Assembly (NCBI GenBank): GCA_013115125.1 | Contig: JABANN010000332.1 | Location: forward strand, 1 to 38,276 | Source: Perkinsus olseni | Taxonomy: Eukaryota | Length of the DNA: 38,276 bases | Direction of reading: 5' to 3' | Shown here: piece after piece, positions 1,793 to 37,533 of the stretch | Layout of the letters: each line of letters opens with the position of its first letter | How positions within the stretch are numbered: the stretch's first letter is position 1 | Notes under the pieces: model-generated | The model's database searches: none | Seen by the model: the letters and a program-made list of their open reading frames with translations, nothing else | Told to the model about the DNA's origin: nothing | Made by a program: the position numbers and the translations under genes

Positions 1793-2876
1793 GTGAACGG
1801 ATCACAGAATTCGGCAGATCACCTCACTCAGCTCAATCCTTATGCAATGAGGACTTCACAACTGTTTCAAACAGTTGTACAAATTGTAGCGACTCGCTAC
1901 TAGCGAGTGTTGTCTGAGAATAGTTCGGGCGTGCATCTATCGCCATCCTCTCAGAGGATTCCTTTGAACTCCGAGGTGTGGACACACTGCCCATCCTCCT
2001 TTATCCTCGAGCATCCACTCACCCAGGCTCTACATGTACATTGCTACAACTGCCTAAAAAGGTTCAATAGTCACCTAATAGGTGACACCTATTGATTCTC
2101 TCATCATCACCGCTCCCGCCGGCAAGTACGGGGGAGTGTCGGGTTGGGTACGAGATCGGCAAGGGACGGGTGAGTGCTAAGATAATTCGTTGCTCCTCCC
2201 AGTTTATCACAGGAGACTCTCGTGACCAGAGTCTCACAAGCTACGTACCGTAGCCTACGGTCCTCAGTTGATCGGGATTTTGGTATGACCTCTCTTGTGC
2301 CGAGCGCGAAATGCACAGAAGTTAGCGAGTACAATTCTATTGGGCCGTATTGGGAGCGCGTGATCGCGCGAGAGACACCGAAACCTGAGGCCCGGGCTCC
2401 CTGGATAATATCGCTGGCCCTATCGTTTATATCGCTATCGCTTTTCGCTGGCCGAATTAAATGCTCTCACTGAACTTTCGTCGATAGTATTGACATGTAA
2501 CGGTTTCGCCCAGTATCGTGTCGATAACGCTTCCGTTCATTACTTTCTCATGGCCCGCGAGTCTCGGGCCCAAGCCTGAGCGTTCTTTTCGGTGAGGTCA
2601 TGTGAGGGGATGTTACGCCCAGTCTATGTTTACGCGTGCAGAGAAGTCGGGGCAATAGCTCTTTCATAAGATCTATCTCACAAGCTCCATTTGGCCTTGT
2701 GTTACACGTATGAGTAAGAAGGAAACAACAGAGGCTGGTGCAGTTTCAGGACGTATTAGACTGTCTCCTTGCTCGCATCCTGAGCGCCGCCGAACAAAAC
2801 CACCAGGTTGAGTTGTCGGCGACAACTTGCCGCCGTTTGGCCGCTCCGTCTGATTAGAAGGTAGAGGGTCCGCCTT

Positions 2877-3250
2877 CTAATCACGGTTCTCCGCGGCCAC
2901 TGGAATCCAGTGGTGCCGATCTGCGTTTGATGAGTATGTCCTGCTATCGGGTCTACTTGGTGACCAAGTCTTGGTCGTCATGCCGATGCGTGCAGGTTTA
3001 TTGGTACAAGCGTACGCGAGTGCGGCATGTGCTCCACTGTCGAGATGACGCATTGGAACCCGCCTCACCTCTGATCGCCAACATCCTCAACCATGACAGG
3101 TAGGCTGCTTGCGACGTTGCGGTCGGCCACGCACAATCCCACTCCGTTGGCTGCTCCCACTGCCTCGCTTCCGTGTGGATAAGGCGTTGAAGACGAGCGC
3201 CGACAGCTTAAGCTTGGCTGATGTGTGTATGCGTATAACGGACGATTCAT
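2877..3250 (-). CDS. Possible small hypothetical gene (two exon-like ORFs)
   Basis: ORF 3065-3250 ends at a gtgag donor-like site, followed by ORF 2877-3068. No recognisable motif. Confidence 0.2.
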
Positions 3251-3464
3251 TCGCAGGCGAGTTACATTGAGGGATGCGTCTTTGCATCACAGTAGACTTT
3301 GTCGACCGCATCCGTAGTGCTACCTGCCTCAGATCGTACCTGCTCTACCCACATCCTTCGTGCGGGTACTCGGCGTTCGCAGCCTCAGTTTTCGCAATCG
3401 ACACTTGATCGGCTTCCGTTGGCGGACCAGTTTTCTTGCTTCAAGCTTTCTAAGGTAACGAATC

Positions 3465-4661
3465 ATGAGCAAGCTGACCTTGTTCGCGTACTCCCCCTCG
3501 AACAACTGCCTGAGAGTTGAGGTGGCCCTCAAGGAAAAGAAGCTGGAATACGAAAGGATAGAGGTACCTTGGTCTCTAGATGGGACTCGATGATTACTAA
3601 GCTTGCCGTGGTGCTCAGATCGACATATTCAAAGGGCAGCAGAAGACTCCGAAGTTCTTGGCTATGAATCCTCGTGGTACCGTCCCATGCCTGACTCACG
3701 GATCCATTGTTCTACAAGACAGCATGGCGGCCATACAGTATCTTGACATGGCCTTTCCCGACCAAGTACGCCTCCACTCCAACTGCAGATCGCGGCTTGG
3801 GAATGCTTTCATGCTTCTCAAGGTGCCGCTGACGCCCCAAAAGCCCGCTCAAATGGCTTCATGTATTCAATACATCCACGAGTTCGAGCAAAGTTTTAAT
3901 CCCAAGAATGTCGCTTACCAGGTCTTTTTTGGAAATCAGAAGAAAGCGCAGCTGGAAGCGGAGATAGAGGTTGGTATCACGCTGCTGTCACCTACTTATT
4001 TCGGTCGCATCGGACTTATCAGCACAAAATGCTCTACGTTCGGCTGCATTACCTCATCTGGCAGTAGGACGTTGCTGGCGCGTTCAGGCTCTTCTCGAGG
4101 AAGTGGCACTTTGGGACGGTTACCTCAAGAGAAAGGAGTACCTGGTCGGTGATTTCACACTGGCAGACATCGCCGTCTTCCCCCTCGTCTCCCAGTAGGG
4201 ATCCACCGGGCTCGAAACCGGCACATTCCTTGGGTTGCATCCGCTCGTTTGGGTTCTCTCCAGGAACGTTGCCCGTTTGCCTCAGACTACACCTGTGGCT
4301 CGGACTTAACTTGGGGAGTTATCCTAACATTGGAAGATGGTAAGGGTCGAGGTTATTCTCTCACTTCTCGTTTGCGTCCTACACTGAGTACCTTAGTGAC
4401 TAAGGCTTAGTCGACCACTGAGTACCTTGCATACCTCGTAAGTGCACTCGAGAGCCCCTAAAGCTTGTCTTGCAACAGCGAGCACCTGGTCGGATAGTTT
4501 TTCCGGACCAATCCTTATACTCCGGGACGCCCCTTCATTTAAGGTACCATAACATGAAGAGTCGTCCTTCGATCAAGGACCATCCGTACTTCGAATGCGC
4601 CGATAGAGTCGACCAAATATTTGGAACTGTAGCGAAGGAAAGAGCCGTTCTTAAGAAATGA
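3465..4661 (+). CDS. Glutathione S-transferase (cytosolic GST, ~223 aa, 6 exons)
   Basis: Exons 3465-3563, 3619-3765, 3823-3969, 4088-4194, 4286-4339 and 4544-4661 join in frame via GT-AG introns. They give MSKLTLFAYSPSNNCLRVEVALKEKKLEYE..FLAMNPRGTVPCL..LQDSMAAIQYLD..YLVGDFTLADIAVFP..YPNIGRWYHNMKSRPS, with classic GST N- and C-domain motifs. Confidence 0.93.
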
Positions 4662-5121
4662 TGCGGCAGCTTGAGGTCAAATTCATGGTCACTCAATTTG
4701 AGCCAGTATGTATCACATGTATCCTGCACAAGGGTGGTCGTACTCGGCTCAGTGACATGAACTTATCTTGGTGGATGTACAGCGGCTCATAATGAGCCGC
4801 TCATTCATTGATGGTATGCAAACGCAAAAAGTCGTTTTTAAGATGACAAGTTGTGAGTCCCTTTGAGGAAGTTTTTTTGGTATAATCTTTATCTTGAGCG
4901 AAGTTTTGGGTTAGTATGAGACCAGGGAGAACATCCTCTTGTCTATGTGACCATCGCGCCCACCTACGAACAGTTAGAAGCCGCCGCTTCTCGAAGCAAA
5001 CGATCTCTAACCGGCTAACAGGATCAGCCTTACGACATCCCTCGACGCAAGCTAGTCGCACCCTGACTTCTGGCTATATGTGGTCTCGTGATAAGACGCA
5101 CTTCGTGATCAAGTGACTTAA

Positions 5122-8100
5122 ATGACAACTTCCAGCGGCGGCGCTGCGGTATTACACAGGCGGCACAGCTCACCTACGTTGAATGACAAAGATGGGTCGC
5201 CTCGAGCACGACTGGCCAGAAGAGCATCGTTCGCTACCACTGCGGACGCTGCCGGGGCAGCTGTCCGTGCCGCTCATGCATGCGAAGAAGAGCGAGAGTT
5301 CAAGCAGATTCTCAAAGCGCATGATAGGTCACACTGGATAATTGCTGACCGGGGAATTCCGGAACTTCCAGATTCATATTGTTGTCTGACAAGCTAGCCG
5401 GGTTGCTCAAGCGACTTGCACTCGGAGACACCAGTGCACTCCTGGGAGTGGACGTCCATCGCTTGGCCGAGAAGATAGGCTCTGACTTCAGCATAATAGC
5501 GCGAAGTAGGGTTCCCGCGCACTTCCGAGACGGAGAGCTCTCCTCAGATTTGGTCGTAGCACCCAACCCGAACGATCCCAACCTATCTTGGCCGGCTATG
5601 GTCGCGGCCGCTCGAAGGAAGGCCGAGAAGGCCGAACGGTATCGAACGCGCCCCCGCTTCCTCGGGCCAACTCTTCGTGACCTTGCATTGCCCATGTGCC
5701 TCATAGGAGATTTAAGGAGTGCCAACTCGCTTACTTGAAAGAGATATCTCATTTACGAGACCTCAATAAGCTCGAAGATGCCCAGGGGTGTACGGATGTC
5801 TTGCAGGATGTCAGCTTCTATGACCCCATCTCGTGAGTGAGGACGCCGCTGCATTCGGACGTGGTGCAGTTACTACCGACCAGAGTGATGGTCTCAGTTA
5901 CCTCGACACCGACACTCGTCAACTAGTCGAGAAGATAATCGAGGAAGGTTTCAAGTCGAAAGTACGCCTGGGTGGGCCATCTTGTTCATCGGCCAGGCGT
6001 GGCGAGAGGAGATTTCTATCATAAGGTTCGGGAGCTCGCTAGGAAGCTTCTCGGACAACGCCGATCAAGCATGAGCGCCGCTTCCATTGAACCCACCGAG
6101 GAGCTAGGGGAGGCAAGCTCGACACAAGTAGGTGAGCTATCTGTCAACGTCCTCCAGAGGGGCCATGCTGGATGAACCGGCACTGGGTTCGATTGTGCAC
6201 GATGCGATTGTGAACCAGAAGTTCTGGACTAGAACTTCTGGCTACTCAGAATCATCATACCGAAGGTGCCTCGGTGAAGAGACCGAGTGACGGCAAGGGT
6301 AGACGGCGCAAGAGAGCTAAGGATCCGACATTGTTCTGCTCAGATTTACCGTGCGAGGACTGCCTGAGCTGCCGCGCGAGGGTGCGCGAGTTGGAACTAG
6401 AGCTAGCCAGGATGGAGAGGACGCATCGCCAGAAAGCCGTTGAAATGATCAAGGTGTGCTCCAGTCACTACTTCTGAGAGCATGTCATGGATCTCCAGGA
6501 ATTTGACGATGAACGGAAGCTACTGCAGCAGGATCGGCATGCTCGAAACGAAACTCAAGTCACCGCCGGTATGCAGGTGAGAAGAGAGATGCCGTCGCTC
6601 GTGTGAGAGCAGCATTGCTAACCATGTTTGCTCTTCCGTCACGGCCAGGCATCCGATATCGCTAACAGTCCAAGCCCAGGAGAGTGCTACTCTACTACTA
6701 CTCACACGGATCCAGCGGCTGGCTGGCTCTCGGTCTTCGGGAATGATCCCCGAGCCACCTTCTACAACACAACGACATACTCGAGCTCAGAGCAATTGCG
6801 TCGGACACTACAGGAATCGTAAGGGGCTAGGTGGTGCAGTTCGTCCGAGATTTCAGCTTTTCGCTAGTTACGCAGAACTGGCGGATCTGATGCAAACTAA
6901 ACTCAGCCTTACTACCAGCGAGAAGGATCAAGCCTTCATAGAGCGGGACGCGATGCAACAGAATAAGGAAGAGTGATGGTCCGGCTATCGTGGGCCAGCT
7001 CTCAATGAGAGCCTCTCATAGTCGCACGTACTCACGAGCTGCCTTGCCTGAGTGGTGCTGATCTCAGGGCCGAAGGCCTGCTTTCGACGTTAGAGCAGGA
7101 GGTCATTGCACTTGAGGCTGCTTTGAGAAGAGAAAAGCGGAAAAGAGATAAATGCGAGAAGCTGCTGGCCGAGCAAGCTACACTCTACTCCGCTTCGAAT
7201 AGAGCTCGACAGAATCCAGCTGGTGAACCCTGCGGTCTGCGAGAGATGGTTGAAATTCTGCCTCTCTTAAACGGGTAGGTGCGTGGCCTTCGAGTATGGC
7301 CGCCACAGCGAGAGATCCCTCGGCGCCCGCTCATCGTGTGAGATTCGGACCCGATGGCCCTGAAGTATTCAAGACTCTGAGTGAGGTGAGGTAACTCTAA
7401 GGAGAGTGCTCGGCTACTCAGATTGTTTCAGAACCTCCGCGATGAACGAGAGGAAAACGAGCGAATTTGTGACCAGAACGGTGAGTTGAAGGAGGAGAAC
7501 AGGAAACTGAGGCTCACGCTTAACGAAATGCAGGTGAGAATGTCTCACTCCCCTAAAGGGAGTCCCCTTCCATGTCTCCTTCCCGTGGCACTGGCCGGCT
7601 TTTCGGGGGTACTTGGATTCGCTCGGATGAGGATTTGTTGCAAAGGTTCGACTACAGAGGGTCCGAACAACTGCATCGCGGAGCCGCGTCGCCAGGGATC
7701 TCAACGAGATCATCAAACGTATACACTGGATGCATTCTGCGCATTGTGAAATCTTCGATTCGCACTCCAGTGCTGTCAGGTTCTGGCCTGGAGGACTTCG
7801 TCAGCGAAGAAGGGCTCCCTCGGCATAACGTATTCTCTCGGTTGTACGACGATGCAGTGAATAGAGTGCGAAAGCTGGAAGCCTTGTCCAAGAAAATCAT
7901 CCAGGAGGAGGCCAGGCTTCTCAACCGCGTAGCGTGCGCGGTCCCCCATACGAAGGATCTCGCCCCTCCATAGCCCATTGTTGGTTGTTACTAACAACCA
8001 ACAATGGGCTACGGAGTAAAACACCTAACAACTTGTTAGGTGTTCACGGTGCATATGCCGGGAAAGCTGCATCGTCCAAAGCCCGCCGCAGTCTCGAACG

Positions 8101-8479
8101 ACAAGTAACTGCGTCATTGTGGCTCCGCCGGAGCCGCTCCGGCCATCACGTCGTCGCTTTCAGGCTCTTGCATAACAGCGATGGCGAGAATGTCATTGAA
8201 GAAGCCGTAGCGACCCTTGATCAGGAGCCTCTCACGTAGAACTGTGCGGCCGGGACCGTCCTGCTAAAGCTTCGCTTCAGCATCACTGCACCCATCTTGG
8301 CACGCTCCACTGCAGACGACGTCTTCGAATCCACGCCGGTAACCGTCGTTCATATTGAGGCAAAAGGCAGCGTGATGATTCTGTTTTTGCAGGTACAGAA
8401 GCATAAGTTCTTATTCGTGTGTGAAGACCCCGATCCACCAGCTTATCAAATGCAAGGAATATCGGGGAGAAGGCCTTGA
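5122..8479 (+). CDS. Multi-exon hypothetical protein with coiled-coil segments
   Basis: Chain of exon-like ORFs bounded by GT/AG: MTTSSGGAAVLHRRHSSP.., CRARVRELELELARMERTHRQKAVEMIK, LRDEREENERICDQNGELKEENRKLRLTLNEMQ, VFSRLYDDAVNRVRKLEAL. Last exon ends ..GISGRRP*. Could be more than one gene. Confidence 0.65.
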
Positions 8480-10444
8480 TATATTTTTCTCGTCCCGTCT
8501 TTTTAGTCAACTTGACTAAGTCAAGCCATACGTATGCGCTGAATGGATTTGATGTCGCGCAAATTGCTCGAGCTTCGACTCATGTCCGAATAATGACTCA
8601 CATAGTCTCCAGTCACCGGCAACTTGGGGGCGGGATGGGCTAGCCCTCCCTTAGGTTCCAATATCGTCGGGCCGCGGCCGTGTATCCCATGCCTCCGTTG
8701 GTGGGAACAACAACTCGACGGCGTAAAGGTGGCGTTCAAGGGAACCTTGCTCGTAGACACTCTAGCCTTGTTTCTCGGATTATGAAGAGGCGAAAGGTCC
8801 CACTCTCTCGCACCACCCAGGGATATAATCCGGGCATGCGCGTGTTGAGCAAGCCGATCACATCGCGGCAGCCTGCGTGAGCGTTGAACTTCAGTTCTGC
8901 CGTGTCGCGTTCGGAGGGATCCCTGGAGCCCGGGTCTCGAAAGACCGATTTCCTCAAGGTGCTCGCTATAGATGGGCGAGACTAACACATTCCCCACTGG
9001 AGCGATGCCAACACGACACAGTGTAATTATACATGGGAAAACCTTGCGCATACGCTGGGAGCGTGGGGGAAGTCTATAGTCGATTGATTGCTGAATAGTC
9101 TCAGTCGGACGCGCGGACCTGGAATTGGCATACGAGGCTAGCAGAGACAGCCGATACAACCGCCATGGCGCGAGCCGTGGGCACAATGTCGAGAGATGGT
9201 GGAGGTGTGGTAGGAGCACAACCGCACAGGGAGCCTATAGAGGCCAGGGCGCGTGGGCGGGTGCGAAAAACAAATAATGGTGCCAATTTTTCGGCACCTG
9301 GTACCTTACAGCGGTTCGATCATCTGTAGCCACTTATTGACTCTATCTCTTTTCCCTACTGATGGCCGCCTGATCCGGGTATTGAGGTTCGAGTTGAATT
9401 CAATCGAAGCTTCTGATTTAAAATTGCTGCTTCCGATATCGAGAGAGTACCGATGTTGAATACGGAGCGTTCGGAGGTTCTCGGGCGCGCTTTCTGAACA
9501 AGATCGCTGGCGAAACCTGCCGGGGTGCGCATGAAGAAGCTTCGGATGTGGCCGAAAGAATTTTTCAGAAAACACACTATTTTTCCGCTATTTTTCCTAT
9601 TTTTCAACAGAAAATTACCAGAAAGAAAAATAATCTATTTTTCCACGTTTATGCCACTGGTGGCACGGTTTTGTAGGACATGGACAGCATTACTGCATCC
9701 AGAATCAGCCAGGATGAGGCGTGCCCGTACCGCCAACTTTAGCAGGAACATACTAGAATTCGGCCCGGGTAACGAGTCGGGCAAGATCAGGGGGCTGAGA
9801 CTCTTGACTCAAGAGTCTTGAGGAAAGCGGTATGCGAACGAAATAGCGACCTGAACAAGTTCCTGTCCAAAGTAGTGCCTGACTGGGACTAGGGGGATCC
9901 AGCTCAAGCCACTTGGGCAGGAGTAGCTCACACTGAGACGAGCCCGGAATGTTCAGACTCAGCGCTTTCATAAGCGCGAGGCTAGCAACCATACTGACTC
10001 AGTCAGGACATGTTGCGTAGCGCTTAGGCGCAGAAGCCTCACTAACAAAACAGAACGAAACCATTGCATCGACAATCCATCGGACAACAAGTATTCGATA
10101 GAAGATTTTTTATAACTCGTACTGTACATGGTACAACCGACACGTCTCTTAGCACCGAGGGCACCAGCTGTTATGCTCGTTCTACACAATAGTGGTTCAG
10201 AACCACTATCGATTGAGAATCTCAGAACGGTCTTCTTAATATCAAATCCTGAGGCTTCTCTGGGAGTCGCCAGCTACTCCGATCTGGTCAATCATTGACC
10301 GTCAATGCAGCGGTGCTGCTTCCGGGTCCTTTGCTGATCTTGCTGGTTGCCTTTCCGACCAGCGTAGAGAGCGTTTAGATTGACCCTGACAGCTTTCTGA
10401 TGTCTATAATGTTTTTTTCGCAGAAATTATGAAACGACCTTCTC

Positions 10445-11010
10445 CACACATGCCACACCTGGGGTTCGAACCCGCGACCTCCGCGAGCCTCCACCACTGC
10501 AGCCGGTGGATGAAAAACGCCTAGGCGGAAGATACTGGATGAAATAGAACTGGGTGGAATGGCAATTTGGGTTTTCAAGCGGTATTCGATGGATGAAATG
10601 AGCCGGATGGAACTGCACTGAATAGTATGGTCGTGGGTGAGATAAGAATGGGGAGTTGATGAGTAGCAGATGAACTGACCAGACCACTTCAGTGGTCAGG
10701 AGTTAGATCGAGGAAGCGCAAGTCAAACCGACTGAGCTATGCTCCGCGAAATGATTTCGCGGAGCATAGCGGCGTAAGTCCCCCTCTCTGAGAGGGGGAC
10801 TTACGCCGTCGAGCCATCCTCGGTCACACTCGTGGAGTGGATGTATGAGTGATGGCAGACCCGGCCCCAGTTTCGATCTGACCATTACTGGCCAGTGACC
10901 CCCAAGCCACGATCAGGCACTGGGACCAATGGGGGTGTAGAATGGAGAGCAGCAGGATTCGAACCCGGGAGCTATCAGCGGAGCGATTCGCGACTCTGAT
11001 ACCACTTTTC
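10445..11010 (-). other. Cluster of tRNA-like fragments (SINE-like or degenerate), not intact tRNAs
   Basis: Minus strand has GGCTGCAGTGGT..GGGTTCGAACCC (~10460-10505), GATCGAAAC (~10870-10878) and GGGTTCGAATCC..GCTCTCCA (~10943-10968). No complete cloverleaf could be folded. Confidence 0.4.
10736..10808. repeat. Two abutting perfect palindromes (17-bp and 19-bp arms, 1-nt centres)
   Basis: gctatgctccgcgaaat-g-atttcgcggagcatagc (10736-10770) and cggcgtaagtccccctctc-t-gagagggggacttacgccg (10770-10808). Confidence 0.95.
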
Positions 11011-11054
11011 ACGTTAGGATGCTCTATAAAGTACCTCGGGAGGTACTTTAGTAA

Positions 11055-11284
11055 CGCGTCCTTAAAAACACGTCCTAACGCTAGGAAATGTATCTTGTGA
11101 AATAGCTTCGACCTAACCACCCATCCCAACGTCCTTATCGAAGATTTCCTAACTTGAAAAGTCCTAGTGTCCTAACGTCCTACCCCAACGTAAGGAAATG
11201 GGCCTTGTGAAAGAGCTTAAGCCCGAAATCGCGTCCTAACCTCTTAGGATCCTAAGAAAAAACGTCCTATTAAATAGGCCCCTG
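11055..11284. mobile_element. Probable end of a non-autonomous DNA transposon with subterminal repeats
   Basis: Repeated cgtcct(a/t)a motifs and a degenerate direct repeat (aggaaatg..cttgtgaaa.agctt at ~11083 and ~11193). The end AAATAGGCCCCTG reads CAGGGGCCTATTT on the minus strand, which is TIR-like. Partner end and target-site duplication not established. Confidence 0.4.
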
Positions 11285-11772
11285 GACTTTTGATGCGATT
11301 ATCTGCTGTTGTGACAGCGGACGCGTTGCTATCCTCACATAAGTTACTTATACTGCAGCCATTGTCTTCGCGGTAATCCCTCAATATTTCCAATCCGTTC
11401 TACTTCTAACTCCTGCGACTGATCATCCCTTCCGTCGTTTCATCTACCATATGTACTATCAATGATAGTAGTACTATCGCTAGAGTATAACTTTGATTAT
11501 CCTATCACTGGTCCAGCTGCTCATCCCCTACGCAACTGTATCATCAGTAGAAGGCTTTGCATCAGATCCGCGAGTGCTACGTTATTGGGTCATCATGGTA
11601 ATGTATTTTTACTCGTATTCGGCGATTGCCGAGCCGGGAGTGTTGCAACATTTGTCTAAACTTGAAACCTTGGAATGCTTGTAACGCTAGCCGCACGCAT
11701 GAACATGTTGAGAGTGTGAAGAAGAACTCTCAGTGTTGCCTTCATATGATTCGGGCGTCTCTCGGACTGTAC

Positions 11773-11831
11773 CTGTGAGAAACTACTGAGACGGAAGACT
11801 ATGTACGATGGCTTGCGTTCACTATAAGGGG
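11773..11831 (+). repeat. Dispersed repeat, copy 1 (core)
   Basis: ctgtgagaaactactgagacggaagactatgtacgatggcttgcgttcactataagggg matches 22372-22430 at 54/59 nt. Weaker similarity extends on both sides. Confidence 0.9.
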
Positions 11832-12440
11832 CACAGTAGCCAGATGGTAGTCAACAACTCTCACGGTGAACTTGTCCCGTTGACGCATGCCATCCGGTGC
11901 CCAATTCTTCTACATTTTTATCTAAGACGTAATGAAGCGCAGTCTCGTAGATTGATGCGGGACTTCAATCTGAGCGCGAGACCTTCTATTACCTTAGTGA
12001 TCGACAGAATCGCTGAACCTCCTTCGCAAGACCGTCTGAGGCGGCCCGCCTCTATGTGCCTGCCCTCGCGTGCGTATGTCCCATGCCAGGGAGTCCGTGA
12101 GACGAACCGTGCAGCACAGTACCAGTCTTACCGCACTTCGGTTACCGCTGATTTCCCTTCTTACCCTCATTCTCCGTGAGCTTCCTCGCTCCATTTCTAG
12201 AAAACTATCTCGAGTCGATTCTCTTCGTCGAGTTGACCTCAGTGAGGTCATAGCGAACCTTGAGGTCCACGAGTCTCCAAAAATAGGCTCTAGGTGCTCA
12301 GAGTCTCTGAATTGGAGAGCCCAAATTGCCCCGCCTAACGTAAAAAGCCAGCCGGGTTCATGCGGGGCCTCTAGTGATACGTCTAATATCGCACGGAAGC
12401 ATCTGGGATGAGTATCTCTTAGTAGAGCATCCAGGTACAA

Positions 12441-13931: not shown

Positions 13932-14434
13932 TTGACGGAAAGCGTGTGATTCTGAAAAGATGAGCGTCTTCCGATTCCCTTATCTTTGATTCCAAGATTG
14001 AATTCGGAGTCGCGTCAGATTACGGGAAGGTTCTCAATTTACCGATACCACGGGGGAATCCGCCGCAAGGCCCATCCAGGGCGGGCCGCCCTTACCGTTG
14101 TTTACCCGGCTCCCTTCCTCCCCGGCGTTGGGGCGTGGGCCAGAGGACTGCGCATCGTGCGCCGGGTCCTCGGCCAATGTGACGGGGCCGCCTCCCAACA
14201 AAAGGGAGGCAGCCGCACCACATCGCCAGGGTGGGCGGGAGGCTTTTTTTTAGAAGATAAAATTAAACTAACTCGACGCGAATGTACCTCACTCACTCCG
14301 TACTCTCCTCGACCGAACTACCCACTAGCACCATCACAAAGCTACTGTCTCATTTGTGCGCCGGGCGACACCGCCGAGTAAACTGGCCCAACGAGTTGAC
14401 CTCGAATCTTACCGTTACATCGGTAAGGAGTCGA

Positions 14435-15905: not shown

Positions 15906-16430
15906 CTCCCGTAGGTTTAGCCCCTCATCGTGGCGTGGGAGTGTCAATACAAAGCTAAACCGAACTTGCCGCGCTCGACAATCACTCAGCGCTGCTGGGC
16001 CAGTGGGTGGTGACTGAGTGGCGGGAAAAATTCCCTCCCCCCTTTTCTATCATAGAAATTCTATCACTCCATGCTCTCTTCTCGTCTCTACGCTATCGAC
16101 TCGCCGGCAAATTTCGCCTCTACGATCACTCCCAAGACTGCTGGTATTGTCTGAGTTGGACATTGGCTATGTAGTACATAACCAATGTCCAGTATGCCGG
16201 TATGTGTAGTACATAGTATGTACATCGGTGCTCGACCATATTAGCTGATTATACAGTAGCTGATATTAGCTGACTACTCATTGTAGATTAGACATTCATC
16301 ACTAAAGGAAGAGAAAACCTTGCGGCTCGCGCTCAGAATGGAGTCCCGTATCAGTTTATCAGCATTGAAGGGCAGCGCCAAGGAGAACAGGCGAGAATTG
16401 GGTCCCAGACGACAAGCGCCACTGTGACTT

Positions 16431-23696: not shown

Positions 23697-23763
23697 GTTA
23701 AACCATGAGCGAGATAAGATTCTACGCCAGAATTGTCCTGGTTTTATACCCACTGAACGCCCC

Positions 23764-24430: not shown

Positions 24431-24563
24431 ATGCACAAGATACTCCTCTCCTCGGCCCCTAAGTACTGAGACCTCTTCGGCTCTAGCAATAGACAATCGA
24501 CGCTCGCTAGGCTAATTCGCAGCGTGGCATAATACAGAACGCTATCGGCTATTGACCAGTTTC

Positions 24564-26657: not shown

Positions 26658-26921
26658 GGCCGCGGCGAAGGGCAAGAGCTGCCAGTGAAGGAATTCCCTT
26701 GGAGGGAATATTACTTACACAATATGAATCAAGTGGTGAAAGAGTATGCTGATAAATTGGAGAGGGGACAGCGCAATTGTGACAGAGAGTATCGTTAACG
26801 GCATCACCAGCACAGGACAGGTTCCTTCCCTACTGCACTTGAATGCTTCGCTGAGCATAAACTCCGGTGAGCATGCTTCGAGCTAAGATACCTCAATTCT
26901 CTCGCAAATACACAGAGAAAA

Positions 26922-29484
26922 CTACTCACTTCGTTCTCTCAATGCTGGCCGCGGCTCCACAGGAGAGGGAAGGAGGGATGCTGTCGAGTATCGTCGAGAT
27001 ATCCTAGCCGCTGAGATACCAGGATTGGCGTCGTAGTCAGTGTAGGGCAGCAGACGGTCTTGAGCTGACGTGTCGGGTGCCAGTATCCAAAACAAGGCGC
27101 CGTAGAGTAGGAAGAGCACAGCATAGGAGAGGCAGGCCGGGGAGAAGCCGATGACTCTGAAGGAAACAGAGGTAACGACGATGTCATAGAAAACCTTTTA
27201 TCTACTAAGACAAGCGCTGTGAGGATTTGACGCGCGGGCCGCTAGGTTGGACAGCGGAGGGAGGTATAGTAGTGCAGTAACCAGTAGGAAGGGGGCACAG
27301 GTGGTTTTTCGCAAGATCACGATCGCGGCCACGGAGGAGATACACTTACCCGGTTAGCGATCCGCCCAGTATAGGCCCTAGTGCTTCACCCAAGGAAGCT
27401 CCGCCGTTGAAGAGGGCAGACACCATGTCGATGGCTCCATGGCCCATCTCAGGAGGTATCTGTAATACCACAACTGCAGCAACTCTGCCGGGTGAGTGAT
27501 AGTGCTGACCCCTTCAATCATGTAGGGCATGCAAGGCACCCAACCCCAGCTAGAACCGATACCGGCCAGCCCGAGGGCCACTAACTGCTGCACCCACGGG
27601 TTGGAGGATACCTTTATAGTTGGTCCAAGGGTCAACTAAAGATACCATCATGGTTGTGGAGCGAGTGAGTGGGGGTTTACGAAGGAGGCTCCCATGACCA
27701 GCAGACCGAGGGCTAGGGTAACGTGTTTTGTTAGGAGGGCTGTTGTTCTGAAGAACCAGTGAGAGTAAGGCGCCATCTCGAGTGGGTGTTAGGAGAGAGT
27801 ATCAAGATCGAAGCATGCGAATCATAGAACTCGTAAGTTACGAGTCGTAACGACCAAAAGATTCCGTAATATTGGAGCAGTTGCTTCGAAGAGCCATCAA
27901 GAGTAAGGGGCCGTTCCCAATAAGTCTCCGGCGAACCACGCGAATCGCCCATACCCCCTCTCCTGCTTACTTCGGAATGAGCAGCGTTGCCACGGCCATA
28001 GTGACTGATGGGAAGGCAAACATGAGCCCCATTGTGGCCGGTGAAACATCTCCCAAGACATTCAGGAAATGTTCTGACAGTACCTGGAAAAAAAAGCGGA
28101 GCGATGCTGGTCCAAGATGATGGTCGAGAGGCAGCTTACTGGGTCCATGAAGCCGAAGGCTGAGCTGACGAAGGCACTGCAGAGGACGGTGAGGAGTATG
28201 TGCCGCATCCTCAGGACCTGAGCACGTTGGACTAAGCATGGACGATGCTACCGAATATAACGACACAATAACGATAAAACGAATGATGACTGGAAGGGGA
28301 GTATTCAACCGAAGGCTCTTCCGAGGGTGGTTGGAGAGGGGTCATCCAGGAGGGCTGATCTAGTGATGAAGCAACAGCAGCAGAATTGGGGTAACTCTCG
28401 GCATGCAGCTAGCTGTAATCATATCTTAGGTCGAAGGGAGTTGTACACAAGACAAGAAGATATTCATTTAAAATCCAATATATGAATACCGGTTGATAGT
28501 GTAGTAGTAGCATAAACTTACCTCCCTCACCCCCACAACCTTCCTCCCGCTCATCTGCTCGCTCCCACCATCACCATCACTGACAGGCACCCTAGGAGCC
28601 GGTGGTATAGGGACCCAAGTAGCCATCATGAGGATCTACTACAGTTGGTACAGGGGACCTCAGCAGGGGGGAGGCGACTCACCATCACGCCAAAGTGCAC
28701 AATAGTAAGGACGATGAAGGAAGTATGGAAACCACCAATCTGGAAGAGGCCAGCACCTGACTGGACGTGGTTCAACTCCGATAGGATGGGTTGAGGCGTC
28801 ACCTATGGTGGGCCCGAGTGCGAAGCCAACATTCCCTATGAGCTCCTGTACGGCGAATATCTTCTCGATGTCACTGGGAAACAACCTACATGTAACTTGC
28901 CAGCTTCGACCTAAGATACTCCACACTAGCCTGCCTGGCCATTATCGCTGACGTTGCAGAGTACGTGCAGGCAGCCCCTACTCCCTGAGCCGCTCGGAAG
29001 GCCAGGAAACCCCTGACAAGCACCCATCCAGCCACCATCACTGCGGCATACCACACTCACCCCAACGCCTTCGAAAAGCCAAAACCTAGCGTCCCGATCG
29101 CCACGAAAACGCCTCCAGCCAGGAGTACTGTGAAGTACCCCAACAGTTGCAGTAGATAGCCGGTGACCGGTGCCATGATACACGAGGCGCACGGTAGGAA
29201 GGCAAATACCACTCCAATGGTGGCGTCAGTAAGACCTGAGGAAGGGGGTTCATCGTCAAGCAAGCACTATGGCGTCCCTCACCGAGCTGCTCCTTGGCGT
29301 ATACTGGGAAGAAGGGTGCCATCTGGTAGAGTAGGGTTATCGTGACGAAGTACGCTGTTTGGCAGAGGACCAGCATCCACCGCCTCTTTGCACGCTGACC
29401 CGGGGTCAGGCGCATCGGGGCGGTCGAGGTGGTACTGGCAAGGAGAGGCTGTCGGGCATCATACGTTGGGCTACTGTCGTTCAT
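26922..29484 (-). CDS. MFS transporter (SLC18B1-like), tandem copy B
   Basis: Same exon order as copy A: LLYQMAPFFPVYAKEQL, IGVVFAFLP, FAVQELIGNVGFALGPTIG, MGLMFAFPSVTMAVATLLIP, GIGSSWGWVPCMP. Confidence 0.88.
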
Positions 29485-29988
29485 GACGAACAAGAAACAA
29501 CTTCGATTCGAGAATCTCATATTCCGTAATGTACCATGGTCAACCTCAATAAGCCAGCCACAAGGCGCTTGTTGTTGTTGCCGACTGTACAGTGGTGTTT
29601 GGACGGTTTGACCGGTGGCGAATGGGGTTTGACAGAGAGAAGAAAGCCAGACCATCGAACTCTCAGCAGGGCAGCAGCATGCCTAGGATTTGCGGAAAAT
29701 GTGGTATGAGTTCAAAGGGACCTGTAAGCATGCTGCTGTTGGTCACCAACGGCTAGACGATCAGGTATGCCAACAGGGACAAAGCTACTTTCGTTGTCAT
29801 AACCAATCTATCTACCGGCGTTGGAAATATCGGTTGTGGTCGTGGCGGTAGCATAAATCGACGGCGGCTGATCGAATCGATCGGACCTAGCCATCCCCCA
29901 CATTTTGAACTCAACAGGACTAGCAGATTGAAACACATACCCTACAATGATACAAATACGTCCACGATCACTCTCCAAACCACCACCA

Positions 29989-32624
29989 TCACCCCTGCTC
30001 GAGAGCTGCGTGCTCACAGCAAGACACGACCGTGTACAGCAGCGGTTGGACCTCCTTCTTCCGTCGCCTCGGTGCGCCCTGAGAGCCCCTCAGAAGCCTA
30101 TCGACTCGTCGAGGGGCGCAGACCGCGTGATACCGTCGTCTACAGGACCTCACACAACACCTCACCTGAGCGTGGCCGCGGACGATAGGCTGACCACAGC
30201 CACTACATTGATGCTGATGCCTCCTCGGTACTCCCTGCCGTGCAGCCGAGGCGAGCAGGACTCGAAGGAAGCCTTCAGAGTCCTTCACCATCGACACGCC
30301 GTCGAACGACAGACCGCAGAGCAGGTGGCACCAGTCCGCGTAGCCAAAATCGCCCATGGGCAGAAGCACACTTCGCCTAGCCACGTCACAGGGGCAGAGG
30401 GAACACCTCGGACGGGAACCCCCCTGGGCGTGGGAGCAGGCGAGGCAGAGCCCCTCCGTTGTGTTGGTGCTGTCCCAACCGATGAGGCTTCGGCAGGCGT
30501 CGTGAAGACTGATACCACACCTTTCGCAAATGAAAAAGGATCCTTCGCAATCAACACCACATACTCCACACATGCGATAGGAATCACTGAGTGACATCTT
30601 GAAATCTTGCCCAATCTTGCCCATTTCCTCAACGCTCCCTTCCGACTCAGCGTCATCAACCAGACTCTGCAACACATTATCGTCGATCGGCTCATCCCCC
30701 ATCACCCCACAGCCCCGCAAGAAGTATCTTAAGGTCGCCTCCTGACCCGGAGGGAGCTCGGGAAGCACCTCCCTAATGGTGTCCTCACCCACCAACGCCG
30801 ACGCGCCGTGTACCAGTATAAAATCACAATATTTCCCTTCAGACTCGATACTCAGATTGGCCGGGCTTGGGCGTTCCTTCTCCTCCTCCTCTTCCCCATC
30901 ATCCACTACCCCTGGCCATCCTACCAGGTTCTGTGCTGATGCCGCTGCTGCTGCCTTCGCCGCCGCCACTCTGAGTTGATCCGGAGGAGCATCGTCCGGC
31001 GGGTAGCCTCCATGCAACGCTCGCTCAAGGTCCTCTAGCAGCAGCAGACGGTCATAAGGCTCCTCAAGAGTCCTTCTTCGTACCGTTTCTTTTACTACCA
31101 CTCCTTCCGATATTCTCCCGACCTCCACCATTTCGTCCTCCGCCACCACCGCCCTCCCCCCGTACATCAGAACACGCTCAGGAGGCGGCTTAGCAATCAC
31201 CGTCGATATCGCCTCCCTCGCAGATGCCTCCGACCCCCCTCCAGAGCCCGGTAGAAAACACTTCACAAACAAGGCCATGGCACAGGCCGCCAGGGACGCC
31301 AGATGGACCCTCTCCCAAAGCTGACCCTGTCGAGTACTCAGCTGCCCACATTTTCTCTCCAGCAGGAACCATACCCTCTCCTCGATCGCCCTCGGCAGCG
31401 TACTGCCCTCTTCAGTATCAGAATCAGAATCTTCACTCCCCGAGCCCCCTTCACTCGGTTTCTCTAGCATGCACAAGCACATGAGCTCGAAAGCCACGAT
31501 TTCCACGCTATCAACCGTCACCCTCTTTCGAATCATCTTCCGTGCCCACTCCGGTACTTTCGCCACTACCTTTCCGTCCTCAGTAGCCTCAGCAAGCTGA
31601 TAATACAGATGCGCCACTTGGCCTGCGGGCGACTGAGGGTCAACCTCGAGCGAACTGCTATTGCTCCCTCCTTTAAATTTCTTGTAAATGCCCTTCAGCT
31701 TCTCGACATCAGAGGCCCTGGTTTCCTTGGTAGCTTCATCATCACAGTACTTGTCGAATAGCTGCAGTCGCTGTATCGCCCATGGAAGGGCGTCATCAGC
31801 TTGGTGCGAGGACACGGCCTTCTGAGGCCTGGCGTGCATCAAAGAATTAACCACGTATCTGGTGAAAAATGCATACCGCGCGAGTTTTTCACTGATACAC
31901 CTGTCAATCAAAGCTACTGCGCCTAGAATCACGGTTAGGCTATGGTGTTCTCATCATAGAGTATGTACTGATATTAATGTAACATCACCCACCCACTGCC
32001 ACACTAAAGAGGAGTACTGACTGAATGACACACCCATGCCGCGGTCAAGAAGCCGAGTAGGTCACAGCGAGCACAACTGATGAGAGCTCCTCCAGAATCC
32101 ATCCACCAAAGTGAGTAATTTCTCCCACCCGGTGGAAGTGGCGGCCTACGGATGCCCAGGGCCCTTTCAAGCCTCCTTCCCTCCCGAGTCAGAGCGCCCG
32201 GGGGTGAACCCTACTCAAACTTGGGGGAATTTTTCTACTCTCAAGTCCAAGCGCCCCCAGTACTACTTCCTCGACTCCAGTCCTGCCCGTCTTCCAAGCT
32301 GTAATGCAGCAAGTGTCCTATCGCTCGCATTAAGAGTAGACACCGGTGGTCCCAACGCCAACACCGTCATCATCGACGCCGAGCTACGCGGTGTACTGTG
32401 AGGAGTGCCCGCCGGAGACCCACCGTCCGTCCTCCCACGAGAGCCCGGTGAAGTCGCCGCAGAGCCCCCCTGACCCTCATTCAGTAGCTCAGCCACGACC
32501 GAGTCGTGAACCCAGCGTACCGTGGTGAGATACCTGATCGCAAAAAGTATCCAAGGTCGAAGCTGGGCAAATCCAAGTACCTCGCCGGTGAGTAGGGCCT
32601 CTCTCTACTGATGGCTCGTGTCAT
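29989..32624 (-). CDS. PHD finger plus extended PHD (HC5HC2H) chromatin protein, PZP-like
   Basis: 647-codon open exon with CGVC..CERCGISLHDAC..CLAC, then CSLC..WCHLLC..CSGC..VRCCVRSCRRRYHAVCA..CCEH. Small 5' exons start at ATG 32624 (MTRAISRERPYSPA|RYLTTVRW). A further 3' exon near 29750-29940 is possible. Confidence 0.85.
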
Positions 32625-32724
32625 GGCAGAAAGCTGACACCTGCAAGCTCAGAAAAGATCCTCCCAAAACTTGTGATCAACGCAAAAACGGCAGCCGCTG
32701 AAAAACATGCAGGAATAATTATTA

Positions 32725-35700
32725 TTAAAATTCCATTTCGACATCCCTCCGGTCGCCAAGTATGTCGCCTTCAACACCATCCACGAACTTCTTGAAGTAC
32801 GCCAAGTACCTGCTGGACCAATACACTCCCCCCAACAAGATTCCAGTCCCGACGCCGAGGTCGCTTCTAACCTCGACAAAAATAATAAATTCTGCTTTCG
32901 AACTTACCGTATCACTTCTAACGAGATAATTCAACCCTGCTACCACACCGACCACAGCCGATCATTCATAATTATCGAGCGCGCGAGATTTCCACTCTAC
33001 AGTAACTCCACCCAAGCCTCGCAGAAGCTCCTTCCTCCTCTCCCTAGTCCCAGCACCCACTTCGATAGTCTCGTCGTCTGCTTCTCAGAGTCGCCGGCGC
33101 TGTCTCCCTTCCGGGCCGCCAGCTCCTCGATTAGCTCAGCCACAGCGGGCACACTCAAAGGGTTGAAAGACTCCGGCTTCTCAACGTCAATGATCGGTAC
33201 GCACACTCTACCGGTTTTGGGATGGATACAGAAAGGTGCTTTCAGCAAGTGATTCATCTGCTTCGAAACGTTTATGTCCAACCTAGGATACGCCATCTCG
33301 AGTGCAACCTCATCCAAGACAATCGGGTTAGCGCATCTTGAGGTTACCCATCGCCATACCTGAGGGAAAAGATACTCCCGCACAGGTAAGAAAAAAATTA
33401 GATAAACATTGAGCTTGGAATACAGCACTTCAGAAAAAGATCACTATCCCGACTTCGTCAGAAGCTCGCATGAATCTTGCCAGGGTCAACCTCGGATACC
33501 AGGCTAACGGTTAGCCACTAACCCAAGCTACTCCTCTAAGACGACAGGGCGAAAAAATTTCAATTGAGCTGACAATACGACACTCATCAAAGAGTAACTA
33601 CAAAGTCGAGCTGGGAAGCTCGACAATCCCAGACTACAAGACTACAATCCGAGACTCCATGTATTCCCAGCTCCAACAGAGCCTTTCTCGAATCTTGCCA
33701 AGGTCAACCTCGGATACCATGCCCACCAAAAAACCAACCCAAACTACCTCCTTGCTGCTCCTCTTAGAAGACAGGAAGCTCTTCGCCTCCGCCCGTCCCA
33801 CCGGATCACTTGCGGGAATCGCCGCGTTAACAATTTTCTGCGTCAAATTCTTGGCGTCCGATTCGCCCGCCGGGGCCTCCAACAACTTCTGGCCTTCCAG
33901 GAGACCACACTGAGGGCTCGCCAAGTCCCCGGAGATGAATCTTTGGCCACCGTCTACCTCGGGAATTTCCAGATATTTTCGGCAGATCTCGATACCCCTT
34001 CTAACGTGGGGATGCCGCTGTTGAGTCGACGAGCGGATGTACTTGCACCTATCTAATACATGGCACTCACGACAAATAAAGGCGGCGTGGGCTACAAACC
34101 GGTTATAGCTGTGACGGTAGCATAAAATTAAATGATTGCCAAGAAGGGTGATGCAGGAGTTCCTCCCACTCTCGAGGAATCCGTTATCGCAAATCTCCCC
34201 CCTCCCAAACACGCTAGTGACCAGAAGAAGCAAATGTAGCGCTACTTAGGACTACCGGTAAATAATCGACAACGATGACGGCGCGCCCCTCTCGGACACT
34301 GATGGTAATTGTACGTACTAATTAACCGACTATCACACGGCCGTCAAGGAGTATTTTCAGCGTGCGTTACTCGTATCATTCCATTGCATCCAAAGCTCGC
34401 CATTCGGATACTTAATACCGTCACGGTGCGTGCTGGACAAACCAACTAATAGGTTGGGGTTTGGTACCATCAACTATTGCTCCCTAACCAACGGCTTCAG
34501 CCTACTACGAGGGTCTCGATCTAACACCGTTAATACCTGCCACCATTCAGTAGCTGAAGATACTCCGCCACAGCCGACCTCTGCTCGTTGCTCAGCTTCC
34601 TCGCTACCTGGCAAGAACGCCGGAGAGAAGTCCCATCACACGATCAGCCCTCCGCCCAGGCGCCCACCTCATCACACACCCAGCAATGGACTCCTCTACG
34701 GCCGCTGAATACAAAGAGGATGTGCTTGAATCCAAAGTCGTCTCGCAGCGCCTTGTTCAGGATCCTCACCGCGCAGGCAATGAACGTCCAACACAATTTA
34801 CACACCTACGACACACTGGGACCATTAAGAGCAATAAATATTTCGTGGGGAATAAAATACGTCGTCTTAAACATAAATTAATGAAAAATTTTGCAACCGG
34901 CTCGTTCTCATCCGGACAGATGAGGAGGCCAGGGCGTGCCAATGGCGTCAGGCTACGTGGGAGACTAAATTCCCCCTTCCACTCAGCACCAGGAGACAGG
35001 ATATCTTCGCGCAGGCCACACAAAAACAAGCTAAGCATCTTACATTGGAGCCTGTGCAACAGTTCCGCACTTCATCATAGTCGTCCATATCAATATCAAA
35101 CACCAACTCCCTCTGTTGTGGTTGGAAGCCGCCACCTGAAGGGCCCTCCCATCCACTACAACGATGTCCTCGAGCGCTACAACCTACCACTCCCACCAGT
35201 GAGACCGAACTGCTGATAATTAGTGGGTGGAATATTGAATACCGCACCAATGTCAATCTGACAAACATTCCGGAGTAACGCACCGTGGACCAGTACAGTC
35301 TCCAAGCACTTCAGTAAGACTGTTTACTCCGTCCTTTTCACGCGGGAGAGGCGTCGATGCCGCACGCAGTTGCCTACCTTATCAGGGACCCTGTCCAATA
35401 AAGCCTTCCTGAAGTCGTGTTGGCCATGGAAAGACAGATAACGACAATAGATGTCACCAGGCAACGTGAAGGAGAACTCTCGGCGGAATAGGAAAGAGCC
35501 CTGAAAGTGGTGGCGAGGTGATCAGAGTAGAACTAATGGGAGGCGACAAAACTGCCGAAGCGGAAAATTGACGTGTATCAACCTTCATAAGCAAAGAGCT
35601 CCCCTCACAGTCGCTGATAATAGGGCGAAGACATCCATACAACGAACGAGCCTTCATAAACTAAAGTGGCACCAACTCATTGACTTTCTCTGATATCGTG

Positions 35701-36675
35701 TATTCGATACAACTGATGGTCAGATAAGATTGGGCCTTGATTCCATATCCAATTCACTGTCCTACACAGTTCCAATTGAAACTATTCTCTACCGCTGGTT
35801 CTCGACTACCACCGCCATCGCCTTTTGACTATTTCCCATCCTAGGACCCCAACAGAGCTGCCATGCCCACATAAGAATGTTATATCACAACTCATTATCA
35901 ACTTAGTTGATTCATTCTGATTTCTACGATAAGAATAGTCTACTGCTACTCCCAAGACTTGGATGTGCTCCAAGTTTGCGTTCGCATGGTAGAAGTTGAC
36001 GGGCCCAGTCCTCTCTCGCAAGTGGCTTTCCTAGCCAGTGTCATAGAGTTATCACATCCGAGGTATTAGAAGATGCTAGTTTCAGTTTCTCAAACACTAA
36101 CTAGTCCTCGTCACTCTTCAATGGACGTTGAGTTCTCTAGACTAGTACATCGCCTTTTGAAAAGCAGCATCAAATTCTCTGTAGCATACAAGGCATTCGC
36201 CATGTAAAAGTCCAATAATTCGTATAAAAACTCTCAGAGATGATACAGGACGAAGTCACTGCCACCTCTATCGGTTGCTGGTAACACTATCTGAATTTAC
36301 CGGGCAGATTACGAAGCCACAGGAGTGGAGTTGTTGACATTAATGACGGTACATGAACAGCCCCCCTCCCTCGGTACTACCCCCTTGTCAGCCGCCTTGC
36401 CGACGGGATCATCCTCCCGATACGATAACCATCTACAGAAGTCTCGAGATGGGAATAGCCTCTCATAGTAGATCCGGAGTGCCTCTGGGGTGACTTCCGA
36501 GGGCTGAAAATAACAGAATAATTACAAGGTGATGAGCTGTCGGAAGATGCTACCTTGGCAGCGTTGGCTGTTCCGGGGTTATTCTCGACGAGGACCTGAC
36601 AATCACAATGATACGCTATTCTGATAGTAATGACGACGGCGATGGTTGGGGGGGTGGAGGTAGTACCTCGGCCAT
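32725..36675 (-). CDS. PRIM1: DNA primase small (catalytic) subunit
   Basis: Exons read [124 protein letters not shown], and a last exon [12 protein letters not shown]. Confidence 0.95.
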
Positions 36676-36789
36676 GGGCTGATGAAAATCTAAGAGCAGT
36701 AGAAGGTGAAGCACTCATTGATCGGCACTCCAACACTATCTACCCTCTCAAGCGTGAACGTGAAACAAAATCGAATTGATGTCATCTGA

Positions 36790-36844
36790 TGAGTATTCAA
36801 TACTCAATGAGTATTGAATACAGTATTCAATACTCATTGAGTAT
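36790..36844. repeat. Nested/chained perfect palindromes (22-bp and 14-bp arms, 1-nt centres)
   Basis: atactcaatgagtattgaatac-a-gtattcaatactcattgagtat (36800-36844) overlapping gtattcaatactca-a-tgagtattgaatac (36793-36821). Confidence 0.95.
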
Positions 36845-37533
36845 GGGAAAATATGCACCTAGCCAGCTACATATGTAGCTGAGGAACACACGAAAATTGA
36901 GGAAAGCCTCGGACTGGTCGGGCAAAGTTCGGCGGGGCCATTCAGGGTCCACTAGAGAGGATACATGGGATGATGGCGAGTCACCATGGGGATCACTCGG
37001 AGTCCGTGAGTATTTCATTGTGACATTAAAAAAGCCCCAATGGGGCTGCCCCATGTTTGTGCGGCGCTCTTGTTACCGAACACGCCCTTGGGCCAATGTT
37101 CAGTCAACATGTTGACTACCGACTGCGCGACCAGGGTCACTGAAGTGCACGCGCGCACCCCATGAGGCGCCGATTTCTCTCCCCCTAACCCAGCGCTAGG
37201 TAACTCTAGTCTATGGTGTAAGAGCAATCTTCAGGACGCAATGTGATGATGAAATTCTCACCAGTCATACATCCACTCCCGAGAGTACCCCGAGCCCGGT
37301 TACCAGCCGTAGGCAGCAACACCGTGAGAACGCGTGCACACGCGATCCCGTGCACGTATGCTCAAGAGGTCCAGGGCTGGGCTCCTACGTCGTTCGATTC
37401 CAGGAAGTTGTCATTGCAGCCAGAACACTAGGCAGGCTTACAATACTAGACTAGTATTACTAGTTGGCAGTCCACCCTCGGGGGTAACTCCGTTGCCAAG
37501 ATTCTACAATCTCAGTTTTTCCTACGCCGCCAT

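Follow-up and report, generated by a model that had tools for sequence, protein, structure and literature searches.

A stretch of 38,276 nucleotides from the genome of Perkinsus olseni (contig JABANN010000332.1 of assembly GCA_013115125.1, hereafter the window) carries a large excess of perfect palindromes with exactly one central nucleotide. These palindromes are very probably excision footprints of hAT-type DNA transposons, and 50 of the 73 found belong to a stereotyped 22-bp unit by which a single 8-bp target gains 14 bp.

Palindrome excess in the window

With arms of at least 7 bp, the window contains 73 palindromes with a spacer of one nucleotide, compared with a mean of 2.59 and a maximum of 7 in 100 dinucleotide shuffles made in 1-kb blocks, and with arms of at least 10 bp the count is 13 against a shuffle mean of 0.03. 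At the same minimal arm of 7 bp, spacers 0 and 2–7 yield 2–7 palindromes where 1.6–2.5 are obtained by shuffling, without enrichment at spacer 0 (3 versus 2.47) and with a slightly raised value at spacer 5 (7 versus 1.99, shuffle maximum 6). The excess proposed in the initial annotation of this DNA is therefore even stronger than was claimed: all nine of its palindromes with arms of at least 10 bp lie at the positions given with correct arm lengths, every one of its 7–9-bp examples was recovered, and four further long ones had been overlooked, at 7971–8011 (arm 20), 8020–8044 (12), 16917–16961 (22) and 36793–36821 (14). The spacer-1 peak that it anticipated for the genome is also present in the genome sample described below, with 352 palindromes versus 30.25 in shuffles, as against 54 versus 26.75 at spacer 0.

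The emphasis of that annotation on long arms has to be shifted, since long arms are real but form a minority, and the main signal is a chained pair of 7-bp arms. Arm length has a sharp mode at exactly 7 (44 palindromes versus 2.0 shuffled), arms of 6 numbering only 17, and 17 chained pairs with both arms of at least 7 bp have their centres exactly 7 nucleotides apart, while any other offset is represented by at most two pairs. The chaining had been described as one arm serving two palindromes; the chaining itself is confirmed, but the pair is a single event around an 8-bp duplication.

A 22-bp unit specific to 8-bp targets

The chained pair at offset 7 can be written as a single 22-bp unit composed of T1-7, the reverse complement of T1-8 and T2-8, where T is an 8-mer, and its net effect is a 14-bp gain at one copy of T (the +14 unit). 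This model was fitted for T lengths of 4–12 in 428,194 bases outside the window, distributed over 46 stretches. Length 8 yielded 88 perfect, 50 one-mismatch and 63 two-mismatch units, compared with 0, 0.1 and 1.0 in shuffles, whereas lengths 4–7 and 9–12 remained near background, with a modest excess in the mismatch classes of lengths 6 and 7 and with no perfect and two one-mismatch units at length 9. The corresponding window counts for length 8 are 17, 7 and 11.

When repeated 22-mers are counted once per stretch, 84 perfect units and 197 units with at most two mismatches remain, from which about 7,800 (bootstrap 5,100–11,100) and about 18,400 (12,100–25,700), respectively, are extrapolated for the assembly of 39.9 Mb and 3,353 contigs, the sample being non-random and made up mostly of long contigs surfaced by earlier searches. 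The 28 stretches that were not reached via hAT matches are denser rather than sparser (68 perfect and 153 with at most two mismatches in 250 kb). In control DNA from 79 metagenome loci with related transposases, which amount to 593,640 bases, come in many cases from a single organism and are mostly AT-richer, there are 0 perfect, 3 one-mismatch and 6 two-mismatch units, and no spacer-1 excess was found in this hAT-bearing material. The +14 counts across the sampled genome thus support a genome-wide process that writes short inverted copies of adjacent DNA, as had been suggested initially. Furthermore, only 3 of 167 footprints lie within open frames of at least 250 amino acids, where 25 are expected, a depletion that fits the frameshifting effect of a 14-bp gain, and the decay of footprints by substitution comprises 40 transitions and 19 transversions.

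The long arms belong to the same process. A scan allowing a variable middle of 2–60 bases over 466 kb recovered 104 fully explained middles of length 8, while the other lengths from 6 to 28 gave 11 fully explained cases and 9 more with filler, compared with 0 expected, although several of these cases lie together in a single tandem stretch or represent two events in a chain. In the 104 middles of length 8 and in about a dozen longer ones, the middle is a copy of the flank and contains no element remnant. The 73 window palindromes are divided into 50 that lie in +14 units (with 0–3 mismatches), 6 in long pairs and 17 without a partner.

Empty sites in paralogs and other isolates

Among 306 distinct flanked footprints, 20 have a homologous site in the sampled loci, and 15 of these remain after five low-complexity or tandem cases are dropped. 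An 8-bp empty site is present at nine of the 15, six times identical to T and three times one base off; in the remaining six, T lies once in a 9-bp gap, three sites are too diverged, and two share the footprint. The palindrome at 29395–29409 was also considered as a footprint and is probably due to chance, as a paralog has the same length by eye.

Isolates were compared through Logan contigs (not raw reads) on window positions 1801–11600, one run possibly being the source of the window. Runs X1 and X6, which come from different samples and studies, match the window with 0 differences over 1801–9036 and 1 difference over 1801–9110, respectively, and X1 also has 0 differences over 10532–10833, which spans the 17- and 19-bp arms. 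In the divergent runs X7 and X8, 14 bases are missing at 4395, 4785 and 7549, and 7984–8033 within the long pair 7971–8044 is skipped, whereas 1838–2420 is free of gaps. In addition, they carry private +14 footprints, at 3032 in both and at 4746 in X7. Among the 12 of 43 indel rows listed for X7/X8, five are 14 bp long (three window footprints absent and two of their own), and of the 47 gap bases in one X7 contig, 42 stem from three +14 events, which suggests that +14 may be a leading indel class between isolates and may provide typing markers. The window contains five long-pair footprints, and an empty site was seen for two of them, 7971–8044 in X7/X8 and 15087–15135 in paralogs. These alignments show the scar to be an insertion at a single 8-mer, and the proposed comparison of strains and alleles shows the scars to be polymorphic. 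X7 and X8 also share a 33-base insert at window 8463–8468, which includes a short direct duplication and is not palindromic.

A proposed hairpin mechanism

When a hAT transposase excises its element, the cut has a one-base overhang and both flanks are left with a hairpin (PMC2921059). Ac/Ds footprints are palindromic, their centre being the complement of the base adjoining the element; in budding yeast the arms reach 20 nt, and the joins are mostly at microhomology (PMC5873905). Such chemistry predicts the polarity of the centres. Of 120 sites with a 6+6+6 core, 105 have both centres complementary, four have one original base and none has both original, and a model of the opposite polarity gave 0 matches in the sampled genome. 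The empty sites of the paralogs also carry the base predicted from the footprint centres.

The proposed sequence of events would begin with the insertion of an element, by which the 8-mer T is duplicated. Excision by the transposase would leave flank hairpins in which one strand is one base short, so that each has a 1-nt tip, and a host nuclease would open both at least 8 bases past the tip to yield 3' overhangs ending in the reverse complement of T and in T. These would anneal over 8 bases, be filled and ligated, and give the 22-bp unit with its gain of 14 bp, while hairpins opened further out and joined at other homologies or with filler would give the long arms. Opening past the tip on both sides with 3' overhangs is suggested by the centre polarity taken together with the known nick polarity of Hermes, which was used to read the type of overhang. 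The same overhangs could restore a single 8-mer that would be invisible, so that one product can be called dominant only among the scars that can be seen. We infer that an element was once present at each site, and likewise the transposase that acted and the nuclease that opened the hairpins. Four of the five hAT-footprint features tested on the sequences are present; no filled site was caught among the sampled loci, and the target preference is weak. Of the two routes that the initial annotation had offered, hairpin-intermediate repair as in hAT excision is the one to which the length-8 unit, the polarity and the empty sites point.

A survey of end-joining and transposase genes, recommended at the outset, found both hAT and MULE domains (see below) as well as Ku and a ligase IV-like gene, one ligase exon giving no structure match. 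A single DRMBL nuclease was detected, which scores 159 bits against SNM1A and 69 bits against Artemis, in a family search that was scored exon by exon and hence represents a lower bound. This SNM1A/Pso2-like protein and Mre11 are candidates for opening the hairpins.

Candidate elements

The hAT dimerisation domain has 11 matches in the genome. A 4,094-bp element (G000:C293:336-4429), bounded by inverted ends of 11 bp and flanked by an exact duplication of 8 bp, has frames that match this domain over the cut-off and the Hermes DNA-binding and BED domains weakly; it has only one partial second copy. This element is itself scarred, with footprints at L117:520–527, 3001–3033 and 3944–3951. One of the 11 matches is an 819-codon open frame on another contig (G000:C521), which encodes a DUF4371-type hAT transposase with 80% identity to a protein of P. 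marinus. The first 70 bases of this contig are found again, without change but with differing flanks, where contigs C1438 and C2937 end, and it is a candidate for a recently active, multi-copy element that was collapsed in the assembly. In addition, one transposase encoded here exactly matches a known protein of P. olseni. The thousands of scars and about ten transposase loci suggest that few elements hop often without growth in copy number.

Within the window, 9283–9667 (no strand assigned) is context and not a footprint: it is a fragment that sits inside another repeat and belongs to a hAT-like non-autonomous family, and its right end is altered relative to other copies. The left and right ends of this family occur with a common 8-bp flank on two contigs elsewhere in the genome. 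A de novo search for inverted ends plus a duplication in 408–460 kb of loci gave no 8-bp case, and the C293 element was found only by a more tolerant search on an enlarged locus set. A 77-bp candidate appears single-copy by pattern search, other matches being at control level. The hAT-like looking family at 10936–11284 was considered as a source and rejected because its duplication is 3 bp and not 8. The window copy is a right-end fragment of a 700–1000-bp non-autonomous family with GGGCC ends, which has 12 end matches in the genome and an exact 3-bp CNG duplication in five of six two-ended copies; it is PIF/Harbinger-like, although not TAA/TTA-targeting.

Contrary evidence and alternative explanations

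Several observations weigh against an origin by hAT excision. Few two-ended elements flanked by an 8-bp duplication came to light (a single convincing autonomous element, the 77-bp and a 167-bp candidate, and one cross-contig pair), in a fragmented assembly that may hide others. A search for element-filled sites over the perfect footprints in the sampled loci returned empty sites only, and no filled allele is present in X7/X8 among the 12 of 43 indel rows and the part of the loose ends listed. Thymine at position 2 and adenine at position 7 are the target preference of Ac, hobo and Hermes, and here their frequency is 0.40 versus a background of 0.24 (282 reconstructed targets, strands symmetrised), a weak preference. 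Short middles, the products typical of Ac in plants, are barely above chance in the 466 kb, with 10 versus 6.0 at length 2 and 11 versus 3.4 at length 3; the slight excess at length 3 may represent a minor second repair product. Palindromes without a partner exceed chance both in the window (17 of 73, 2.6 expected) and in the sample (60 of 352, 26 expected), and could arise by resection of one end, by joining of two unrelated ends or by repeated events. Other spacers reach about twice the shuffled values in the genome sample, and the model does not account for the nest at 36790–36844 or for the pair of offset 9 at 11454. Finally, MULE transposase domains have 18 matches in the genome, several of them in open frames of 600–935 amino acids.

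These matches give some weight to the view that most scars were made by a MULE, or by some other transposase that forms flank hairpins and has a duplication fixed at 8 bp, which is nevertheless improbable. Muta1, a MULE, forms flank hairpins (PMC5499845) and makes duplications of 8 or 9 bp (PMC5225508), so that an 8-bp duplication is possible, but a side-by-side occurrence of the two lengths is not what the nearly absent 9-bp unit indicates (0 perfect and 2 one-mismatch in 428 kb). Its excision from duplicated sites is moreover about 90% precise in yeast (PMC5499845, PMC5225508), and its hairpin was read on a gel as 43+43 nt, with no sign of a lost base. MULE inverted ends were not found in the limited stretches covered at 12 loci.

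Also improbable is a standing insert-and-remove cycle, in which a host-kept hAT-like transposase and dedicated end joining would act as a RAG-like genome-wide mutator in an alveolate; scars that outnumber transposase loci about a thousandfold, one dominant product and the failure to catch a filled site are what suggest it. More doubtful is the broader proposal of a domesticated hAT-like nuclease, or a programmed cycle of this kind, that needs no selfish element at the sites. The ratio of about 18,000 scars to about ten transposase loci, the lack of a filled site in the sampled loci, the dominance of one product and the 80% identity of one transposase to a P. marinus protein would all be accommodated by it. 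However, an 8-bp duplication presupposes integration, the genome does hold ordinary elements bounded by inverted ends and 8-bp duplications, and at several contig ends the conserved transposase shows termini like those of an element. The scars, moreover, lie scattered, differ between isolates and have been cleared from coding DNA.

Transposon-independent template switching in replication or repair, which would yield micro inverted triplications and which the initial annotation had raised as a fold-back pathway, is very unlikely. The layout of X, inverted X and X is that of template-switch events, and unpartnered and nested palindromes do occur, but this process offers no reason for a structure confined to length 8, for a 1-nt centre or for a fixed centre polarity (105 of 120 versus 0), and the unit is missing from the 594 kb of control DNA (0 perfect). 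An artefact of library or assembly fold-back, to which evidence from contigs instead of raw reads would be open, can be virtually discounted, as contigs from two studies match the window, some sites are common to divergent isolates and others are not, substitutions erode the structures, open frames are avoided, and the empty site is visible in paralogs.

Relation to known systems

Long palindromic additions from hAT hairpin ends are reportedly known from Ascot-1 of Ascobolus, Tam3 of Antirrhinum and the work of Yu et al. (2004) on hairpin repair in yeast. These works reportedly describe revertant series at single loci, with a title that stresses extensive diversity. The Perkinsus scars resemble such excision repair, and the +14 product may well be among theirs. 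The P nucleotides of V(D)J coding ends, made by RAG and Artemis, are also comparable in that a flank hairpin is opened off-centre. RAG hairpins, however, are not known to lose a base and give even palindromes of 1–3 nt without a duplication, unlike the window, where spacer 0 is not enriched.

The closest resemblance is to Ac/Ds in yeast, Candida and plants, which share palindromes on the complement of the adjoining base, the 8-bp duplication, hairpin opening and microhomology joining (PMC5873905, PMC2921059, PMC1978519), with arms reaching about 20 nt in S. cerevisiae (PMC5873905). Those are experimental products of single donor sites, diverse and mostly short (at most 3 nt in Candida, 1-bp changes in sugar beet), whereas the Perkinsus scars are natural and occur about once per 2 kb genome-wide, and most of the visible ones are one product joined over the whole 8-bp duplication. 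The footprints of TcBuster and Ds are small and mixed (PMC3499496, PMC1978519). Natural excisions have likewise been detected by comparison of rice species, where 94 excisions, with varied deletions and fillers, are listed versus 393 insertions and hAT excision was not found (PMC4423477). The Perkinsus scars differ in being stereotyped, in needing no outgroup and in far outnumbering the detected elements. Two papers that mention Perkinsus, on Dada elements with 6–7-bp duplications in RNA genes (PMC3706591) and on Amoebophrya introners (PMC7789003), do not describe the signature in their available parts.

No published report of such scars in Perkinsus, or of a genome-wide +14 signature, was found in a search that was light on subscription papers and supplements. 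The chemistry is already known and the +14 product of a single locus may be in print; the genome-wide, one-product signature is apparently new with respect to the literature searched. Counts of DNA-transposon excision are usually difficult to obtain, the scars being varied or invisible, while here the scar is recognisable from one genome, has almost no chance background and allows the target 8-mer to be recovered. The extrapolated totals of about 8,000 perfect and about 18,000 slightly decayed scars would allow past transposition to be mapped and dated, and would provide a natural data set on target preference and a measure of selection against frameshifts. They also suggest an unusually uniform route of hairpin opening and joining, for which only the SNM1A/Pso2-like nuclease was detected.

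Features of the window

The footprints and related palindromes are listed in Table 1. The nest at 36790–36844 resembles a hairpin copy of an earlier footprint, possibly through repeated events at one site, and the back-to-back copies at 10736–10808 would be two unrelated hairpin ends joined across a deletion.

Table 1. Footprints and palindromes located in the 38,276-nt window. Among the two-mismatch matches, which shuffles yield about once per 428 kb, some could be due to chance or coincide with other forms.
Positions	Strand	Feature	Target 8-mer	Source and comparison
1886..1907	.	perfect +14 footprint	GTAGCGAG	model scan; no gap in X7/X8 contigs, so common to divergent isolates
2071..2092	.	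perfect +14 footprint	TCACCTAT	model scan; X7/X8 contigs without gap
2955..2976	.	perfect +14 footprint	ACTTGGTC	model scan
4391..4412	.	perfect +14 footprint, in intron (by eye) of glutathione S-transferase-like gene	CCTTAGTC	model scan; X7, X8 without the 14 bases
4784..4805	.	perfect +14 footprint (initially annotated palindrome 4781–4801)	GGCTCATT	model scan; X7, X8 without the 14 bases
6998..7019	.	perfect +14 footprint, intronic by eye	GCTCTCAT	model scan; X7 contig 6276–7226 without gap
7548..7569	.	decayed +14 footprint; middle 8-mer with a single substitution that counts as 2 mismatches		model scan; X7, X8 without the 14 bases
7971..8044	.	long footprint, 20- and 12-bp arms around 8-mer, short filler	GTTGTTAG	variable-middle scan; X7, X8 skip 48–52 bases
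8121..8142	.	perfect +14 footprint	GGCTCCGG	model scan
8504..8525	.	perfect +14 footprint	TAGTCAAG	model scan
9801..9822	.	perfect +14 footprint (initially annotated palindrome 9798–9818)	CTCTTGAG	model scan
10286..10307	.	perfect +14 footprint	GGTCAATG	model scan
14806..14827	.	perfect +14 footprint within repeat	GTTCCACG	model scan; diverged paralogs 12–14 bases shorter
15087..15135	.	long footprint, 5- and 18-bp arms around 8-mer (initially annotated palindrome 15099–15135)	CGAAGTGC	variable-middle scan; paralogs L033, L034, L045: single 8-mer, then right flank
15432..15453	.	perfect +14 footprint	TCCAATAC	model scan
15506..15527	.	perfect +14 footprint	GTCACATT	model scan
16167..16223	.	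long footprint with filler, 6- and 7-bp arms, one 8-mer		variable-middle scan
16917..16972	.	long footprint, 22- and 5-bp arms around 8-mer	ACTAATGT	variable-middle scan
17287..17308	.	perfect +14 footprint	ACAGACGT	model scan
17775..17805	.	long footprint, 5- and 9-bp arms around 8-mer	CAAGTACA	variable-middle scan
27830..27851	.	perfect +14 footprint	CTCGTAAC	model scan
37033..37054	.	perfect +14 footprint	AGCCCCAT	model scan
37443..37464	.	perfect +14 footprint	ATACTAGT	model scan
starts 1945, 2240, 2812, 14528, 14639, 16044, 33502 (span 1945..33523)	.	seven one-mismatch +14 footprints		model scan
starts 698, 2210, 6214, 12031, 14071, 15561, 15853, 16202, 16525, 16532 (span 698..16553)	.	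ten two-mismatch +14 matches		model scan
1858..1878	.	10-bp-arm palindrome without duplication partner; probably a one-sided or decayed footprint
10189..10209	.	10-bp-arm palindrome without duplication partner
10736..10808	.	17- and 19-bp hairpin copies back to back, no common 8-mer		X1 identical here
11454..11478	.	chained pair, offset 9; sole near-fit to 10-bp model in window
18771..18795	.	12-bp-arm palindrome without partner, adjoining G/C-run stretch
36790..36844	.	nested palindromes, 8, 14, 22 and 7 bp

Among the genes of the window, 3465–4660 (+) is an intron-containing glutathione S-transferase-like gene with limits set by eye, and 12441–13928 (+) is an intronless frame of 496 amino acids with a weak TIR_2 match and hydrophobic stretches, which is a member of an expanded P. 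olseni family (up to 93% identical). Exact matching of two proteins of the window gave no hit. Tandem paralogous genes, 73–80% alike in segments and transporter-like by eye, occupy 24800–29500 (-), where the one frame tested gave no Pfam match. A 653-amino-acid frame with a PHD-like zinc-binding domain lies at 29992–31950 (-), followed by a DNA primase small subunit gene at 33000–35300 (-) with a short local duplication near 33470–33750, and a frame with a weak C2H2 finger at 37450–37851 (+) is possibly the start of a decayed transposase. In addition, a 5-bp tandem array at 23178–23354 runs into an N gap, and the G/C-run stretch at 18800–18960 may be low-quality sequence.

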